From assembly GCF_057098645.1 (NCBI RefSeq), contig NZ_CM169472.1: a stretch of 64,000 nucleotides of DNA; one strand, given 5' to 3'. Shown here one piece after another: positions 2,867 to 51,511 of this stretch. Position 1 is the stretch's first letter, and each line of letters starts with the position of its first letter. The notes beneath the pieces are model-generated. The model searched no databases and had not been told where the DNA came from. It saw nothing but the letters and a program-made list of their open reading frames with translations. The position numbers were made by a program, and so were the translations under genes.

Positions 2867-3391
2867 TTAATAATAAGTGCCGGGTTTGTTACGATAGTAT
2901 TCTGCTATATCCTTAAGAATATGCTTTGCCTTATTGCCTGTGACTTTCTGAGATTCAATTATAGTATCGTTAAATTCTAAAGTTAAAGAGAACTCATTTT
3001 TTCCGCTTTGTGTAAGTTTAACCTTATATTGATTACCAATATCAAATGAAAAGGTCCTGTAATGAGAATAATCACCTTTAACCTCCTCGGCAAAACAGCA
3101 AAGCGTGCAAATATACATACAATCTTTCTTACCCCTGATTTTGTTAACTAAATCAATAAATGCGTGAAAAACTGTACTTGCAATAGAACTTGATGCTTCT
3201 TCTCCAGGTCTACAAAAATCTTTTGCAATTTTTAACTGTGTTTCTATATATAAAAAGAGATCTTTGGCATAAGAGATATCTTTGTTATTTAGTGTATCTA
3301 GCTCTACAGGTAAAGATGTCGTTTTGTTGCTATTCACATATGATATATTCATGTCATCATCTCCTTCGGGAGTAATAAAATTAGTCACCAT
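2867..3391 (-). CDS. Hypothetical protein, 174 aa, AT-rich, no recognisable domain
   Basis: Uninterrupted 174-codon ORF in a markedly AT-rich tyrB-aphA intergenic block; Asn/Lys/Ile-rich; no motif I can assign. Occupies the position of the short K-12 gene yjbS. Confidence 0.45.
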   Translation of the reverse strand: MVTNFITPEGDDDMNISYVNSNKTTSLPVELDTLNNKDISYAKDLFLYIETQLKIAKDFCRPGEEASSSIASTVFHAFIDLVNKIRGKKDCMYICTLCCFAEEVKGDYSHYRTFSFDIGNQYKVKLTQSGKNEFSLTLEFNDTIIESQKVTGNKAKHILKDIAEYYRNKPGTYY

Positions 3392-3490: not shown

Positions 3491-4483
<993 letters not shown>

Positions 4484-4489
4484 CAGAGC

Positions 4490-4525
4490 GGGAGAGCGTG
4501 ACACTCTCCCGAATGCTGTTTTTTT
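4490..4525 (+). terminator. Rho-independent terminator downstream of aphA
   Basis: GC stem gggagag/ctctccc followed by a run of seven T. Confidence 0.6.
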
Positions 4526-4593
4526 AATCACACCTTTATCCTTTCGCTGTCTTGCTGCAAACTGATTAAGAGAGTTTTATCAAGGAGCAGCAC

Positions 4594-5010
4594 ATGTGGT
4601 ATCAAAAGACGCTCACGCTTAGCGCCAAATCTCGTGGGTTTCATCTGGTAACGGATGAAATTCTGAATCAGCTGGCTGATATGCCGCGCGTTAACATCGG
4701 CTTACTGCATCTGTTGCTGCAACATACCTCCGCCTCTCTGACACTTAATGAGAACTGCGATCCCACCGTACGCCACGACATGGAGCGTTTTTTCCTCCGC
4801 ACCGTTCCCGATAATGGAAACTATGAGCATGACTATGAGGGAGCAGACGATATGCCTTCTCATATCAAATCCTCAATGCTGGGAACATCGCTTGTATTGC
4901 CGGTGCATAAAGGGCGTATTCAGACCGGCACCTGGCAAGGCATTTGGCTGGGGGAACATCGCATCCACGGCGGATCGCGTCGCATCATCGCGACACTACA
5001 AGGGGAGTAA
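4594..5010 (+). CDS. yjbQ: UPF0047 family protein YjbQ
   Basis: 138-aa ORF matching E. coli YjbQ as recalled; conserved position between aphA and uvrA. Confidence 0.85.
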
Positions 5011-5013
5011 AAA

Positions 5014-5370
5014 ATGACCATTTCGGAGTTGCTACAATATTGCATGGCAAAACCAGGCGCAGAACAGAGCGTGCATAACGACTGGAAAGCGACGCAGATC
5101 AAAGTGGAAGATGTACTGTTTGCGATGGTGAAAGAAGTAGAAAATCGCCCAGCTGTTTCGCTGAAAACCAGCCCGGAGCTGGCGGAGCTGCTACGTCAGC
5201 AGCACAGCGATGTGCGTCCAAGCCGCCATCTGAATAAAGCGCACTGGAGCACCGTGTATCTCGACGGTTCGCTGCCAGATTCGCAAATCTATTATCTGGT
5301 GGATGCGTCTTATCAGCAGGCGGTGAATTTACTGCCGGAAGAAAAACGTAAATTGCTGGTGCAACTCTGA
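5014..5370 (+). CDS. yjbR: Uncharacterised protein YjbR
   Basis: 118-aa ORF immediately after yjbQ (4-bp gap), same order as K-12. Confidence 0.85.
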   Translation: MTISELLQYCMAKPGAEQSVHNDWKATQIKVEDVLFAMVKEVENRPAVSLKTSPELAELLRQQHSDVRPSRHLNKAHWSTVYLDGSLPDSQIYYLVDASYQQAVNLLPEEKRKLLVQL

Positions 5371-5378
5371 AAGGAAAA

Positions 5379-5397
5379 GGCCGCTCAGAAAGCGGCC
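5379..5397. terminator. Bidirectional hairpin between convergent yjbR and uvrA
   Basis: ggccgct-cagaa-agcggcc stem-loop flanked by A-run upstream and T-rich downstream, between two convergent genes. Confidence 0.5.
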
Positions 5398-5404
5398 TTA
5401 ACGA

Positions 5405-8227
5405 TTACAGCATCGGCTTAAGGAAGCGTGCCGTGTGTGATGCTTCGCACTCCGCGACGGTTTCTGGTGTACCGGAGACGAGGATCTCGCCGCCGCCACT
5501 GCCGCCTTCCGGACCCAGGTCGACAATCCAGTCAGCAGTTTTGATCACGTCGAGATTGTGCTCAATCACCACGATGGTATTGCCCTGATCGCGCAGTTTA
5601 TGCAGCACGTCGAGCAGTTGCTGAATATCGGCGAAGTGCAGACCGGTGGTCGGCTCGTCGAGAATATACAGCGTCTGCCCGGTGCCGCGTTTTGACAGCT
5701 CACGCGCCAGCTTCACGCGCTGGGCTTCACCACCAGAAAGTGTGGTTGCGGACTGCCCCAGGCGAATGTACGTCAGACCAACGTCCATCAACGTTTGCAG
5801 CTTACGCGCCAGAGCTGGCACCGCATCAAAGAACTCACGCGCCTCTTCGATGGTCATATCCAGCACTTCGTGGATGGTTTTGCCTTTGTACTTAATTTCC
5901 AGCGTTTCACGGTTATAGCGTTTACCTTTACACTGGTCGCACGGTACGTAAATGTCCGGCAGGAAGTGCATCTCCACTTTGATCACGCCGTCGCCCTGAC
6001 AGGCTTCGCAGCGTCCGCCACGGACGTTAAAGCTGAAACGTCCCGGCGTATAGCCGCGCGCACGGGATTCCGGTACGCCCGCAAACAGTTCGCGCACAGG
6101 AGTAAACACGCCGGTATAGGTCGCCGGGTTAGAACGCGGAGTACGACCAATTGGGCTTTGGTCGATATCGATCACTTTATCGAAATGCTCCAGTCCCTGA
6201 ATATCGCGATACGGTGCCGGTTCGGCGATGGTCGCACCATTCAACTGGCGTTGGGCAATCGGGAACAGTGTGTCGTTAATCAGTGTCGATTTACCGGAAC
6301 CTGAAACCCCTGTGATGCAGGTAAACAGACCAACTGGCAGCGTTAGCGTCACGTCTTTCAGGTTATTACCGCGTGCACCAGTCAGCTTCAGCACTTTTTC
6401 CGGATTCGCCGGAACGCGTTTCTTCGGCACTTCAATCTTGCGTTTACCGCTCATGTACTGCCCGGTCAACGACTCCGGCACCGCCATAATCGCTTCCAGC
6501 GGACCTTCCGCGACCACTTCACCGCCATGTACACCTGCACCAGGACCGATATCGATCACATGATCAGCGGCGCGAATCGCGTCTTCGTCGTGCTCCACCA
6601 CAATCACGGTATTACCGAGATCGCGCAGATGGATAAGTGTACCCAACAGGCGCTCGTTATCGCGCTGGTGCAGGCCGATAGACGGCTCGTCCAGTACATA
6701 CATAACACCAACCAGGCCCGCACCAATCTGGCTCGCCAGACGGATACGCTGGGCTTCACCGCCAGAAAGCGTTTCTGCCGAGCGGGAAAGTGTCAGGTAA
6801 TTCAGGCCGACGTTAACGAGGAATTTCAAACGATCGCCGATCTCTTTAAGAATTTTTTCCGCAATCTTCGCCCGCTGACCTGCGAGTTTGAGATTGTTGA
6901 AGAATTCCATCGCATGACCAATGCTCATGTCGGAGATGGCGGGCAGCGGCGTATTCTCGACATACACGTGGCGCGCTTCCCGACGCAGACGCGTCCCTTC
7001 GCAGCTGGCACACGGACGATTACTGATAAACTTGGCTAATTCTTCGCGTACCGCGCTGGATTCCGTCTCTTTATAACGGCGCTCCATATTGTGCAGCACG
7101 CCTTCGAACGGATGACGACGAATGGAGGTATCGCCACGATCGTTCATGTATTTGAATTCAATGTTTTCTTTGCCAGAACCGTACAACACCACTTTATGCA
7201 CGTTCGCGCTCAGGCTGCCCCACGGCGCTTCGACGTCGAACTTATAGTGATCTGCCAGCGATTTCAGCATCTGAAAATAATAGAAGTTGCGGCGATCCCA
7301 GCCACGGATCGCACCACCTGCCAGCGACAGTTCCGGATTCTGGATCACGCGGTCAGGATCGAAATATTGCTGTACGCCAAGGCCGTCGCAGGTCGGGCAG
7401 GCCCCCGCCGGGTTGTTAAACGAAAACAGTCGCGGCTCCAGCTCGCGCATACTGTAGCCGCAAATTGGGCAGGCGAAGTTGGCGGAAAACAGCAGCTCTT
7501 CCGCTTTCGGGTCGTCCATATCCGCCACTACTGCGGTACCACCGGAAAGCTCCAGCGCGGTTTCAAACGACTCGGCCAGACGTTGGGTAAGATCGTCACG
7601 CACCTTGAAGCGATCAACCACCACTTCAATAGTGTGTTTCTTTTGCAGTTCCAGTTTCGGCGGATCGGAAAGATCGCAGACTTCGCCATCAATACGAGCA
7701 CGGATGTAACCCTGGCTTGCCAGGTTCTCCAGCGTTTTGGTGTGTTCGCCTTTGCGCTCTTTAATGATTGGCGCGAGCAGCATCAGACGCTTGCCTTCCG
7801 GCTGCGACAGCACGTTATCCACCATCTGGCTGACGGTTTGCGCCGCCAGCGGGACGTCGTGGTCCGGACAGCGCGGTTCGCCGACGCGGGCGAACAACAA
7901 ACGCAAATAGTCGTGGATTTCGGTGATTGTCCCCACCGTAGAACGCGGGTTATGAGACGTCGATTTCTGCTCAATTGAGATGGCAGGAGAAAGCCCCTCA
8001 ATATGATCGACGTCCGGCTTTTCCATCAGTGACAGAAACTGCCGCGCGTAGGCGGAAAGGGATTCAACGTAACGGCGCTGCCCTTCGGCATATAAGGTGT
8101 CGAAAGCGAGCGAGGATTTGCCAGAACCCGAAAGCCCGGTCACGACAATGAGCTTGTCGCGGGGGATAACGAGGTTGATGTTTTTGAGATTATGGGTGCG
8201 GGCGCCCCGAACTTCGATCTTATCCAT
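5405..8227 (-). CDS. uvrA: Excinuclease ABC subunit A
   Basis: 940-aa ORF with two ABC ATPase modules ([10 protein letters not shown] and [10 protein letters not shown] Walker A, two LSGGE signatures) and zinc-finger cysteine clusters. Confidence 0.97.
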
Positions 8228-8312
8228 TCACCTTTCCCGGATTAAACGCTTTTTTGCCCGGTGGCATGGTGCTACCGGCGATCACAAACGGTTAATTATG
8301 ACACAAATTGAC

Positions 8313-8328
8313 CTGAATGAATATACAG
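8313..8328. promoter_or_regulatory. LexA (SOS) box in the divergent uvrA-ssb control region
   Basis: CTGAATGAATATACAG on the plus strand (CTGTATATTCATTCAG on the minus strand), fitting the CTGT-N8-ACAG SOS consensus, located between uvrA and ssb. Confidence 0.8.
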
Positions 8329-8481
8329 TATTGGAATGCATTACCCGGAGTGTTGTGTAACAATGTCTGGCCAGGTTTGTTTCCCGGAACCGAGGTCACA
8401 ACATAGTAAAAGCGCTATTGGTAATGGTACAATCGCGCGTTTACACTTATTCAGAACGATTTTTTTTCAGGAGACACGAAC

Positions 8482-9018
8482 ATGGCCAGCAGAGGCGTAA
8501 ACAAGGTTATTCTCGTTGGTAATCTGGGTCAGGACCCGGAAGTACGCTACATGCCAAATGGTGGCGCTGTTGCCAACATTACGCTGGCTACTTCCGAATC
8601 CTGGCGTGATAAAGCGACCGGCGAGATGAAAGAGCAGACTGAATGGCACCGCGTTGTGCTGTTCGGCAAACTGGCAGAAGTAGCCAGCGAATATCTGCGT
8701 AAAGGTTCTCAGGTTTATATCGAAGGTCAGCTGCGTACCCGTAAATGGACCGATCAATCCGGTCAGGATCGCTACACCACAGAAGTCGTGGTGAACGTTG
8801 GCGGTACCATGCAGATGCTGGGTGGTCGTCAGGGTGGTGGTGCTCCTGCAGGTGGCAATATCGGTGGTGGTCAGCCGCAGGGCGGTTGGGGTCAGCCTCA
8901 GCAGCCGCAGGGTGGCAATCAGTTCAGCGGCGGCGCGCAGTCTCGCCCGCAGCAGTCCGCTCCGGCAGCGCCGTCTAACGAGCCGCCGATGGACTTTGAT
9001 GACGATATTCCGTTCTGA
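8482..9018 (+). CDS. ssb: Single-stranded DNA-binding protein
   Basis: 178-aa [47 protein letters not shown]..., Gly/Gln-rich linker and acidic C-terminal tail DFDDDIPF. Confidence 0.97.
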
Positions 9019-47669: not shown

Positions 47670-49934
47670 ATGGCGCACCCCGGACGTCACTTTTTTGCCA
47701 GCGCGCGCGGGCGATTGCTGCTTTTGAATTTGCTGGTGGTGGCGGTGACGTTGATGGTCAGCGGCGTGGCGGTAATGGGCTTTCGTCATGCCAGCCAGAT
47801 GCAGGAGCTGGTGCAGCAGCAAACGGTGGATGATATGACCGGCAGCCTGAATCTGGCGCGCGACACGGCAAACGTGGCAACGGCGGCGGTGCGATTGTCG
47901 CAGGTGGTGGGAGCGCTGGAATATAAAGGCGAAGCCGAGCGGTTGCAGGAGACACAGCGGGCATTAAAAAGCTCGCTTGCACAACTGGCGAACGCGCCTT
48001 TAGCGCAGCAGGAAGCCGGGCTGGTGACGCGCATCATCACGCGTAGCAACGAACTGCAAACCAGCGTCGGCGGTATGCTGGAGCGCGGGCAAAGGCGGCA
48101 TCTGGAGCGCAACGCGCTGTTAAGTTCGCTGTATCAAAACTTAAGTTATCTGCGGCATCTGCAAAAAGTCACTCACGCGCAAGATGATATTTTGCTTAAC
48201 GAGATGAACCGACTAATTGTTGCCGCTATTGCCACCCCCGCGCCGCAGGCGATTATTCATCAACTGGTCGGGGTAATGTCTGCGTTGCCGACCCACAGCG
48301 ATACGCCATTGGTTAATACGTTACTCAATGATTTCAATGATGAAATGCGTAAACTCGCGCCGCTTTCTGCCGCTCTGGAGCAAAGCGATCTGGCAATCAG
48401 CTGGTATATGTTTCACATCAAAGCGCTGGTGGCGATCCTCAATGGCGACATCAACCGTTACGCCGAACAGGTGGCGACGCTCTCCGGTCAGCGTGTGGCG
48501 CAAAGTTACCAGGATTTGCGCTCCGGCGAGAGGGTGATCATGATTTTCGCCCTGTTAGCGGTGGTGATCACCGCGTTTGCCGGCTGGTATATCTATCGCA
48601 ACCTCGGCACTAACCTGACGGCGATTTCCCGCGCCATGAGCCGCCTGGCGCACGGCGAAGCGGACGTCACTTTTCCGGCGTTACAGCGGCGTGATGAGTT
48701 GGGTGAACTGGCGCGCGCCTTTAACGTTTTTGCCCGCAATACCGAGTCACTCGAACGAACCTCACGGCTGCTAAAAGAGAAGACCACGCAGATGGAGATT
48801 GCCCAAACTGAGCGGCAGGGGTTGGAAGAGGCGCTATTACACAGCCAGAAACTGAAAGCGGTCGGGCAACTGACGGGCGGGCTGGCCCATGATTTTAATA
48901 ATCTGCTGGCGGTGATTATTGGCAGCCTGGAGCTGGTGAATCCGGACTCGCCAGACGCGCCGCGAATACAGCGGGCGCTGCAAGCTGCCGAACGTGGGGC
49001 GCTACTGACACAACGACTGCTGGCGTTTTCCCGCAAGCAGTCCTTACATCCGCAAGCCGTTGAACTGAAAACATTGCTGGAAGAGTTAAGCGAATTAATG
49101 CGCCACTCCTTACCGGCAACGCTGGCGCTGGAGATTGAAGCGCAGTCTCCGGCGTGGCCCGCGTGGATTGACATCAGCCAACTGGAAAATGCCATCATCA
49201 ACCTGGTGATGAACGCCCGTGACGCGATGGAAGGGCAGACGGGAATCATCAAAATTCGTACCTGGAATCAGCGCGTTACTCGCAGCAGTGGGCAGCGTCA
49301 GGACATGGTGGCACTGGAGGTCATCGATCATGGCAGCGGTATGTCGCAGGCGGTGAAAAGCCAGGTATTTGAGCCATTCTTTACCACCAAACAGACGGGC
49401 AGCGGCAGCGGGCTGGGGTTGTCGATGGTCTATGGTTTTGTGCGCCAGTCCGGTGGGCGCGTTGAAATTGAAAGCGCGCCGGGGCAGGGGACAACGGTCA
49501 GATTACAGCTTCCCCGCGCGCTGACGGCGGCGAAAAACCTATCGCCAGCGGCAGTAGAACAGGCTTCTGTCAGCGGCGATAAACTGGTGTTAGTGCTGGA
49601 AGATGAAGCCGCGGTGCGCCAGACCATCTGCGAACAGTTGCACCTGCTGGGCTATTTGACGCTGGAAGCAAGCAGCGGCGAACAGGCGCTGGATCTGCTG
49701 GCGGCATCAGCAGAAATCGATATTTTTATCAGCGATTTAATGCTCCCCGGCGGCATGAGCGGCGCAGAAGTGGTCAATGCGGCCCGCAAACTTTACCCGC
49801 ACCTGACGCTGCTACTCATCAGCGGTCAGGATTTACGCCCCAGCCATAACCCCGCGCTGCCAGACGTGGCGCTGTTGCGCAAACCCTTTACCCGTGCGCA
49901 GTTGGCGCAGGCGCTGGGGCAAATTGAGGGATGA
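47670..49934 (+). CDS. Hybrid sensor histidine kinase (periplasmic sensor, HAMP, HisKA, HATPase, C-terminal receiver)
   Basis: Start trimmed to ATG 47670 (MAHPGRHFF...); two TM segments flanking a roughly 270-aa helical periplasmic domain; H-box GGLAHDFNNLL; ATP lid DHGSGM, GSGLGLS; receiver with Asp in IFISDLMLPG. No HPt domain. Confidence 0.85.
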   Translation: MAHPGRHFFASARGRLLLLNLLVVAVTLMVSGVAVMGFRHASQMQELVQQQTVDDMTGSLNLARDTANVATAAVRLSQVVGALEYKGEAERLQETQRALKSSLAQLANAPLAQQEAGLVTRIITRSNELQTSVGGMLERGQRRHLERNALLSSLYQNLSYLRHLQKVTHAQDDILLNEMNRLIVAAIATPAPQAIIHQLVGVMSALPTHSDTPLVNTLLNDFNDEMRKLAPLSAALEQSDLAISWYMFHIKALVAILNGDINRYAEQVATLSGQRVAQSYQDLRSGERVIMIFALLAVVITAFAGWYIYRNLGTNLTAISRAMSRLAHGEADVTFPALQRRDELGELARAFNVFARNTESLERTSRLLKEKTTQMEIAQTERQGLEEALLHSQKLKAVGQLTGGLAHDFNNLLAVIIGSLELVNPDSPDAPRIQRALQAAERGALLTQRLLAFSRKQSLHPQAVELKTLLEELSELMRHSLPATLALEIEAQSPAWPAWIDISQLENAIINLVMNARDAMEGQTGIIKIRTWNQRVTRSSGQRQDMVALEVIDHGSGMSQAVKSQVFEPFFTTKQTGSGSGLGLSMVYGFVRQSGGRVEIESAPGQGTTVRLQLPRALTAAKNLSPAAVEQASVSGDKLVLVLEDEAAVRQTICEQLHLLGYLTLEASSGEQALDLLAASAEIDIFISDLMLPGGMSGAEVVNAARKLYPHLTLLLISGQDLRPSHNPALPDVALLRKPFTRAQLAQALGQIEG

Positions 49935-50346
49935 TTTTCAGAATTTATCAAGAGGCCTGAAGCAAATGTGCTGCTATTGTGAGCAATTCTGTTCTGAATG
50001 GGATATAAAAGGAATTATGCCAGTACTGACAAGAGGCGATTCACATATGATCGTGATGCCAACCACCTATAGCGATTTCAGTGTTTGTATTAGACACTGA
50101 ACAAGGGGCATTTTGGCCTTATGATGGCACGAAAGTGATCTACGATGGCGGTTGCATTCCGGAAGAGCGTATCTGGAGTATTTCACCGGATCAAAAATGT
50201 CATGGCATTGTGCTGGTGGCGGAAAATAAACAGCGAGCTAACCAGCTAATGGAAGAGTCTGCGCCTTACCGAATTTGAGATTACTCCGCTACTCCGGTCA
50301 TTCACACTCAACTAACGTTAAGCCAGTCCATCGCAGAGACTGGCTT

Positions 50347-50676
50347 ATGAAACCTTACTCCACGCTTTTTCTTTTCAGCCTGCTCACGCTGACCACCGTA
50401 CCGGCCCAGGCCGATATTATCGACGACACCATTGGCAATATTCAGCAGGCGATTAACGATGCTTATAACCCTGACCGTGGGCGAGATTATGAAGATTCGC
50501 GCGACGACGGCTGGCAGCGTGAAGTGAGCGACGATCGGCGCAGACAATATGACGACCGCCGTCGCCAGTTTGAAGATCGTCGCAGGCAACTGGACGATCG
50601 CCAGCACCAGCTTGATCAGGAGCGTCGGCAGCTAGAAGATGAAGAGCGGAGAATGGAAGATGAGTATGGGCAATGA
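50347..50676 (+). CDS. yjdP: Secreted low-complexity Arg/Asp/Gln-repeat protein
   Basis: 109 aa from MKPYSTLFLFSLLTLTTVPAQA; repeated DDRRRQ-type units; upstream of phnP as in K-12. Confidence 0.75.
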   Translation: MKPYSTLFLFSLLTLTTVPAQADIIDDTIGNIQQAINDAYNPDRGRDYEDSRDDGWQREVSDDRRRQYDDRRRQFEDRRRQLDDRQHQLDQERRQLEDEERRMEDEYGQ

Positions 50677-50752
50677 TGTTGGGTATGGAGCAGGCATCGC
50701 CCCTCTGGGGAGAGGGTTAGGGTGAGGGGGCCAGCACGCACATTCCCTCTCA

Positions 50753-51511
50753 TCACGCCACCCCAATCTCCATCCCATCAAACCCCGCCTCAAACCCCGA
50801 CGGCAGTGTGTTTTCCATCAGCCATGCATCAAACTGATGGCTGATGTGCGTCAGAATCACGCGCGGCGAGCGGATAACCTGATTCAGCGCAAGCACGGTA
50901 TTTAAATCACAGTGATTACGCGGTGCATCCTCGCACGGCGGGTGGCTGCAATCAATCACCATTACCTGCGGCTGATTATTGCGTAAAAATTTCAGCGTTT
51001 TTTCCGGCAAGCCAGCGGTGTCAGACAGCCACGCCACCCGGCTGTGCGCCGTTTCCAGCAGATAACCGAAGGTCAGTTTTGAGTGGTTGAGCGGCAGGGG
51101 CGTGACCTGTAACCCCTGCAAATCAAACACCACAAACGGTTCCACCGTGTGGCTGAAATCAAGCAGGTCCGGATGTTTAAACAGATCGTCGCAGCCCTGT
51201 TCATCCGGCGGGCCGTAGACCGGGATCGGATCGCCCACGCCCCAGCGCAGCGGAAACAGCCCCTGGACGTGATCCATATGGTAGTGCGTCAGCAAAAACT
51301 GCTGGAACGATCCTGGCGACCAGCGAGCGGTGAGATCGTGCAGCCCGGCGTCGATCAGGGTGATCGCCTCGTTAAACTTCACTACGCCGCTGCACGGTTG
51401 GCGGCGATAGTGCGGTGAGCGCCGCGCTCTGGCGCAGGCCGCACACTCGCAGCCCCATGCCGGAACGCCCTGTGCGCCGCCGGTGCCGGTGAGCGTGAGG
51501 GTCAGGCTCAT
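50753..51511 (-). CDS. phnP: Phosphonate-pathway cyclic phosphodiesterase (MBL fold)
   Basis: 252 aa, HYHMDH metallo-beta-lactamase motif. Confidence 0.9.

Follow-up and report, generated by a model that had tools for sequence, protein, structure and literature searches.

What lies between a sensor kinase gene and yjdP, and does any of it still encode a protein? The window analysed here, a stretch of 64,000 nucleotides, carries on its plus strand a gene for a hybrid sensor histidine kinase/response regulator (47670-49934), a homologue of rbfS/z5692 of OI-167 in O157:H7 EDL933 according to the RefSeq annotation of an identical O145 genome and to PMC9860305. Between the kinase stop at 49934 and the ATG of yjdP at 50347, the ORF list and the sequence leave 412 bp (49935-50346). 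The program-made ORF list has here two short plus-strand frames starting with GTG, one of 68 aa (49894-50100) and another, in a different frame, of 65 aa (50081-50278). An earlier note on this DNA had described some 410 bp with a 68-aa and a 65-aa ORF in different frames, and its coordinates and translations are exact. It proposed a decayed gene remnant marking a recombination joint, or a small protein gene. Taken alone, two ORFs of ~65 aa in 412 bp are unremarkable. They rise above chance because both map onto one conserved gene, from which the window lacks 401 bp relative to intact alleles. The idea of a decayed remnant was thus right.

An 801-bp query across the region matches 26 complete genomes at 100% identity, mostly E. 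coli O145:H28, and one more at 99.9%. RefSeq gives in the identical genomes the order hybrid sensor kinase, pseudogene, yjdP, phnP. The pseudogene, which covers the equivalent of window 50075-50278, bears the label 'GNAT family N-acetyltransferase; incomplete; missing N-terminus'. Of the 30 matches listed for the query, three come in two pieces extending over 1,202 bp rather than 801 bp. E. coli 14EC033 has an intact 633-bp CDS between the kinase and yjdP (WP_032282010.1, 'N-acetyltransferase'), and such an intact CDS occupies this position in six complete E. coli genomes. Alignment of the window with the intact allele shows a single clean 401-bp gap; elsewhere identity is 99.5%, with two substitutions. 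The missing 401 bp correspond to 133 codons and 2 nt and remove codons 20-153. As 401 is not divisible by three, the two ends that remain lie in different frames.

What had been listed as two separate ORFs is instead the N-terminal 19 and the C-terminal 67 codons of one gene. The region between the kinase and this GNAT-like gene (49935-50016) was kept whole and is identical to that of the intact allele. The N-terminal remnant, codons 1-19 in the alignment to the intact allele (MPVLTRGDSHMIVMPTTYS; 50017-50073), ends at the deletion joint ...CCTATAGC|GATTTCAG... (50073|50074), which pairwise and five-way alignments place at the same point. Beyond it, the ORF list and the translation give an out-of-frame tail, DFSVCIRH (50074-50100), closed by the stop at 50098-50100. 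The last 27 codons of the 68-aa ORF are therefore the 19 original codons, from ATG 50017, plus eight frameshift codons and a stop, and its first 41 nt are the 3' end of the kinase gene read in another frame. The 65-aa ORF is read in the same frame as the 67 codons retained from the C-terminal end (50075-50275). Codons 154-220 (ISVFVLDTEQGAFWPYDG...APYRI) with their stop form the C-terminal remnant (50075-50278), which is placed by the alignment and has the same coordinates as the RefSeq pseudogene. Its stop, TGA 50276-50278, falls within a conserved 20-nt element (TTGAGATTACTCCGCTACTC; plus strand, 50275-50294) that opens the yjdP upstream region. There is no microhomology at the joint, not even one shared base; a two-step deletion through AGC and GATTT repeats is conceivable but unsupported.

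One may ask whether the 401 bp were rather inserted in the intact alleles. This is contradicted by the full-length orthologues in other genera and by their dN/dS. A word-indexed search retrieved 61 homologous protein clusters, all from Enterobacterales, at 79-86% identity in Leclercia, Lelliottia, Silvania, Enterobacter and Citrobacter and at 53-59% in Buttiauxella, Yersinia and Cedecea; full-length orthologues of the intact protein are 79-84% identical to it. The earlier note had made its reading depend on homologues and on conservation of the frames. Both exist, with 61 clusters and intact orthologues in at least five genera. Intact orthologues show pN of ~0.1 and pS of ~0.7, and dN/dS of 0.02-0.11 where dS is unsaturated. 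The parent is a real gene. Hence the locus combines the features of a pseudogene: an orthologous full-length homologue, a disabling lesion and intact copies under purifying selection. We are highly confident that it is the pseudogene of an acetyltransferase-like gene of ~220 codons, split by an internal frameshifting deletion of 401 bp, and we met no evidence against this reading.

The 3' part was already flagged as a pseudogene: the RefSeq/PGAP feature (e.g. I3Y_RS25615 in E. coli O145 RM9872) is identical to the window in sequence and position. Yet PGAP flags 50075-50278 alone, as missing its N-terminus, whereas the window retains the upstream region and the first 19 codons and its lesion is internal. 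Our analysis adds that both ORFs belong to one pseudogene, that the lesion is internal, that the start of the family has probably been mis-set, that the parent belongs to PHROG 7522, and that the gene marks the right end of an island.

Scanning a single genome for each species gave 26 loci. The order kinase, GNAT-like gene, yjdP, phnP is common to Citrobacter, Enterobacter, Leclercia, Lelliottia nimipressuralis and Escherichia sp. E1V33. The chromosomal gene of Yersinia, Buttiauxella and Cedecea has only unrelated core genes around it (pmbA/cybC; rsmI/sugar operons), and its neighbours in these three genera give no functional clue, so that guilt by association does not help. Three Lelliottia genomes have the als operon and rpiB inserted between the GNAT-like gene and yjdP. 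A side observation concerns this arrangement. In Lelliottia sp. CP141606.1 a 63-nt direct repeat, 95% identical between copies, flanks the GNAT-like gene, as it does in two further loci. The repeat is made of the last 20 codons of the kinase and its stop (positions 7822-7884 and 8647-8709 of the extracted locus), and after its second copy come the als operon, rpiB and yjdP. The arrangement points to a recombination with a donor whose kinase abutted alsK, by which either the als block or the gene was joined here.

Where does the parent gene start? Probably at ATG 50017, ten codons 5' of the RefSeq start at ATG 50047, which makes a gene of 220 codons. The 11 codons 5' of the annotated ATG read MPVL-x-x-G-(D/S)-S-x-M in 26 of 28 loci, from Yersinia to Escherichia, and the codons for MPVLxxGxSxM vary at synonymous third positions. 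The upstream ATG is preceded by a Shine-Dalgarno-like AGGA/AGGGA, there are in-frame stops further 5', and in the 220-aa form the alignment with the PHROG 7522 profile begins at residue 1. It is the conserved peptide, the synonymous changes, the Shine-Dalgarno-like site, the upstream stops and the PHROG alignment that argue for the longer gene. The block GGGATATAAA(A/G)GGAATT, which lies just 5' of the start codon and includes the Shine-Dalgarno-like AGGA, is kept in Citrobacter, Enterobacter, Lelliottia and Leclercia. The two exceptions to the peptide are Winslowiella and Escherichia sp. E1V33, which has lost ~38 nt including the upstream start. This start region (window 50017-50049) corresponds to positions 3318-3350 of the extracted 14EC033 locus.

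The parent protein is best described as a divergent, mobile protein with a predicted GNAT fold. Pfam Acetyltransf_1 (PF00583) matches 34 residues (80-113) with 20.5 bits and E = 6e-4, just under the gathering score of 20.7; distant members of the family find nothing in Pfam, and the intact protein has no usable match in NCBIfam, in a PDB sequence search or in PADLOC. In GNATs, the acetyl-CoA loop of motif A reads Q/R-x-x-G-x-G/A. A [QR]xxGxA loop is present in 22 of 23 aligned members, as R-D-K-G-L-A in E. coli, and the family alignment has 47 invariant columns, with a C-terminal third rich in invariant residues. An AlphaFold2 model built from this alignment shows a GNAT alpha/beta fold at medium confidence (pLDDT 68, pTM 0.72). 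Compared with the GNAT superfamily, the parent stays below the Pfam gathering score and has ~60 extra C-terminal residues modelled with low confidence, and its best structural neighbour is a regulatory acetyl-CoA-binding domain, not an enzyme. A HMMER scan of 1.84 billion representatives gave 500 relatives at E <= 0.001, most of ~200-220 aa, and those tested had no Pfam domain. The match to the PHROG 7522 profile is strong (E = 4.1e-65), aligning residues 1-204 with profile positions 3-204 of 210.

Some GNATs are toxins of toxin-antitoxin systems, and we rejected this identity for the parent. An AtaT/TacT-type pair would need a small partner, and no small ORF adjoins the gene in any context examined. 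Type II toxin GNATs have ~160-175 aa against 210-220 aa in the parent, PADLOC gives no match, and AtaT is one of many fold matches of equal rank.

The P1-like phage-plasmids RCS47 (gp098), SJ46 and vB_EcoM-673R5 carry a ~50%-identical paralogue of the GNAT-like protein; in RCS47, in SJ46 and in the P1-like plasmids of E. coli this identity extends over residues 1-204. In RCS47, gp098 (positions 5031-5627 of the extracted locus) lies between tail-tube genes and repL. Homologues of ~50% identity are also found on 123 E. coli plasmids, mostly non-mobilizable and of ~90-100 kb. The phage-plasmid members of PHROG 7522 and the chromosomal gene have equal lengths and equal N-termini. Unlike them, the chromosomal gene lies outside any prophage and, in genomes of the window type, between a two-component kinase and yjdP.

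The history of the locus is then as follows. The ancestor was a free-standing gene of ~220 codons (663 bp counted from the upstream ATG, 633 bp in the annotation), the final one of an rbfSR/D-lyxose-isomerase island of the OI-167 type, and its product a divergent protein of predicted GNAT fold resembling acetyl-CoA-dependent acyltransferases. In the lineage of the window, O145:H28 and a few relatives, a deletion took the 401 internal bases and shifted the frame. It left the upstream region, 19 codons that continue as eight codons in the wrong frame up to a stop, and a detached 3' end of 67 codons. Both the core beta-sheet and the [QR]xxGxA acetyl-CoA motif lie in the deleted 401 bp. With the whole core and motif A gone, no acetyltransferase can be made from the window locus. 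We infer that the function has been lost and that the 3' ORF is not expressed. Most likely the locus has no protein function today; at most it could yield the stub peptide of 27 residues.

The region might nevertheless be retained as DNA, as regulatory sequence or 5' leader of yjdP, with transcripts coming from the upstream region of the dead gene or by read-through from the kinase. The 20-nt element (TTGAGATTCCTCCGCTACTC; 50275-50294) is nearly invariant, and its distance from the yjdP ATG is fixed at 72-76 nt in every genus and haplotype examined, whereas the spacer outside it is only ~50% identical between haplotypes. It is single copy in the window; among the extracted loci it was placed at 7797 in L003, 2429 in L007 and 15660 in L010, and it was found in L014-L020, L031 and L035. 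In addition, a stem-loop at 50319-50347 (UAAGCCAGUC...GACUGGCUUA; plus strand) abuts the yjdP start codon, ending on its A. The RNA fold of 50270-50365 has -20.3 kcal/mol (z = -1.96), and 11 sequences keep the pairing of the stem-loop in 96.9% of cells, with covariation no higher than in shuffles. The stem-loop is absent from the spacer haplotypes of K-12 and EDL933. Between the kinase and yjdP a terminator scan found no terminator-like site. Yet the element and the hairpin are 3' of the pseudogene and lend no support to the remnant itself (50017-50274). The TGA of the element ends three genes unrelated to one another: rpiB (K-12 and Lelliottia), the GNAT-like gene (window type) and the kinase (EDL933 type). 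The element occurs just as well where yjdP follows rpiB or the kinase. O157:H7 TR01 and typical O157:H7 manage without the remnant. A promoter scan of the kinase-yjdP region found no consensus sigma-70 promoter, with one chance-level match inside the remnant, and Rfam at a permissive threshold returned for 49800-50800 nothing except noise (E >= 1, scores far below the gathering scores). A regulatory reason for keeping the remnant is thus improbable.

The 20-nt element does not seem to be coding sequence of yjdP either. We considered TTG 50275 as the start of an N-terminal extension of YjdP and rejected it: the 72 nt in E. coli are in frame with yjdP, whereas the 73-76 nt of other genera are out of frame, and no conserved reading frame runs across the element and the spacer.

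The second proposal of the earlier note, a small protein gene, fares worse, and we consider it very unlikely for either ORF. Naturally, the frame at 50075-50278 is open and well conserved in the family, and the 65-aa ORF (50081-50278) had struck the earlier reader as a folded fragment. But this conservation is that of the full-length protein, and in the AlphaFold2 model the fragment is just the end of one alpha/beta domain, its last strands and helix, and part of the fragment has pLDDT < 50. Its sole in-frame start, GTG 50081, has no Shine-Dalgarno sequence. The short form is limited to 27 nearly identical genomes, so that selection has not yet passed on it. As for the 68-aa ORF, it is only by its last 27 codons that it relates to anything, and eight of these are frameshift products. 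The pseudogene reading accounts for both frames.

Does the remnant mark the place where the island was joined to the chromosome? The island replaces alsK-rpiB of K-12, between yjcS and yjdP, and homology with K-12 stops at window 40661 to resume at ~50341-50381. Relative to K-12, the window has 34 of 68 positions identical in the 68-bp spacer before yjdP, 20 of 34 in the first 34 nt of yjdP, and 93-97% identity from 50381 on. Since identity with K-12 starts from ~50381 only, the joint lies inside the beginning of yjdP, in the region of the signal peptide and some 100 bp beyond the right end of the pseudogene. The annotated yjdP (50347-50676; plus strand) therefore begins with ~34 nt of a divergent, island-type haplotype and is K-12-like from ~50381 on. 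Relative to EDL933 the divergent patch is over by ~50356. To the left and right of the gene the intact alleles are flanked exactly as in the window, which implies that the 401-bp deletion came later and was internal to the gene. That the stretch is the scar of the recombination which brought the island, the deletion having been made at the island/backbone joint and marking it, is hardly credible, for although the remnant is the final island gene, ~70 bp from yjdP, and although the right end of the island varies among E. coli, the flanks shared by intact alleles refute it for the 401-bp deletion, the spacer (50%) and the start of yjdP (59%) differ from K-12 and identity reaches at least 93% only from ~50381, and the gene also sits beside yjdP in Citrobacter, Enterobacter and Leclercia. 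The remnant is what is left of the last gene of the island, one that neighbours the kinase in other genera too, and not a mark of the joint as had been proposed.

The island itself is known. OI-167 of O157:H7 EDL933 (z5684-z5692) encodes a D-lyxose isomerase, a sugar ABC transporter and RbfSR (z5692/z5684), a riboflavin-sensing two-component system (PMC9860305). It is the same island at the same chromosomal site as in the window, and the two kinase genes share 99.8% identity in their 3' part. Its right end is structurally variable in E. coli, with NAT-type and EDL933-type haplotypes. Unlike the window, typical O157:H7 and O55:H7 have no GNAT-like gene; the last few codons of their kinase differ and lead directly into the 20-nt element, and the spacer before their yjdP shares just ~50% identity with that of the window. 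PMC9860305 concluded that O145:H28 and O157:H7 obtained rbfSR in separate events. The presence or absence of the gene, which separates an O145:H28-type from an O157:H7-type right end, fits with this. Further to the right, REP-like palindromes between yjdP and phnP (window 50684-50750) vary in copy number: relative to the window, K-12 has ~70 and 14EC033 ~20 extra bases (positions 8230-8345 and 4380-4474 of the extracted K-12 and 14EC033 loci).

How often has the gene been lost? We surveyed 5,426 complete E. coli genomes and found 410 island carriers, i.e. genomes having the 3' part of the kinase. The GNAT-like gene is intact in six of them, and 27 have the 401-bp deletion of the window. One (R32_14_1F) has a different deletion of 300 bp, and in another (O157:H7 TR01) a deletion of 748 bp has taken the entire gene, while the flanks to its left and right are of the window type. 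The gene is absent altogether from ~375 genomes, typical O157:H7, O55:H7 and others (e.g. EDL933, C9, GF4-3); in gene-less genomes the kinase diverges after ...GGGGCAA and terminates within the 20-nt element. There are thus three deletion alleles in E. coli besides that of the window, and more in other genera, such as the ~245-bp deletion of Leclercia sp. 29361 and the ~88-bp deletion with a frameshift of Enterobacter asburiae TN152. Kept in some lineages and independently lost in others, the gene looks like a typical dispensable accessory gene.

Two observations on the neighbourhood deserve mention. O157:H7 TR01 has an O145-type kinase end and yjdP spacer (positions 3976-4042 of the extracted locus) together with its own 748-bp deletion, and its yjdP, phnP and phnL alleles are unlike those of EDL933, which suggests that this genome may carry a recombinant segment. 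In several island-carrying E. coli the adjoining phn operon is largely deleted: C9 and GF4-3 retain phnO only, and R32_14_1F (positions 3858-5000 of the extracted locus) has a phnP fragment, phnO and a phnN fragment beside yjdN.

One might speculate that PHROG 7522, the parent family, is a costly or conditionally harmful mobile accessory gene that is being purged, or that the 20-nt element is a cis-element not yet described. We regard this as unlikely. Active purging of the gene would account for the number of independent internal deletions, which is at least five in a small sample. If the element were a cis-element, it could be a regulatory site of yjdP, or else a preferred boundary of rearrangement that shaped both right ends of OI-167.

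In short, an accessory gene has decayed in a routine way at the border of a known E. coli island, and the case carries little weight for biology at large. Its use for annotation is more immediate. The RefSeq label 'missing N-terminus' does not describe the lesion correctly, and the start annotated for the intact family probably lies ten codons too far downstream. A family with a predicted GNAT fold, common to chromosomes and P1-like phage-plasmids, is now flagged. Finally, an evolutionary marker is provided by the 401-bp deletion and by whether a genome has the gene at all, and this supports separate histories of this virulence-linked island.
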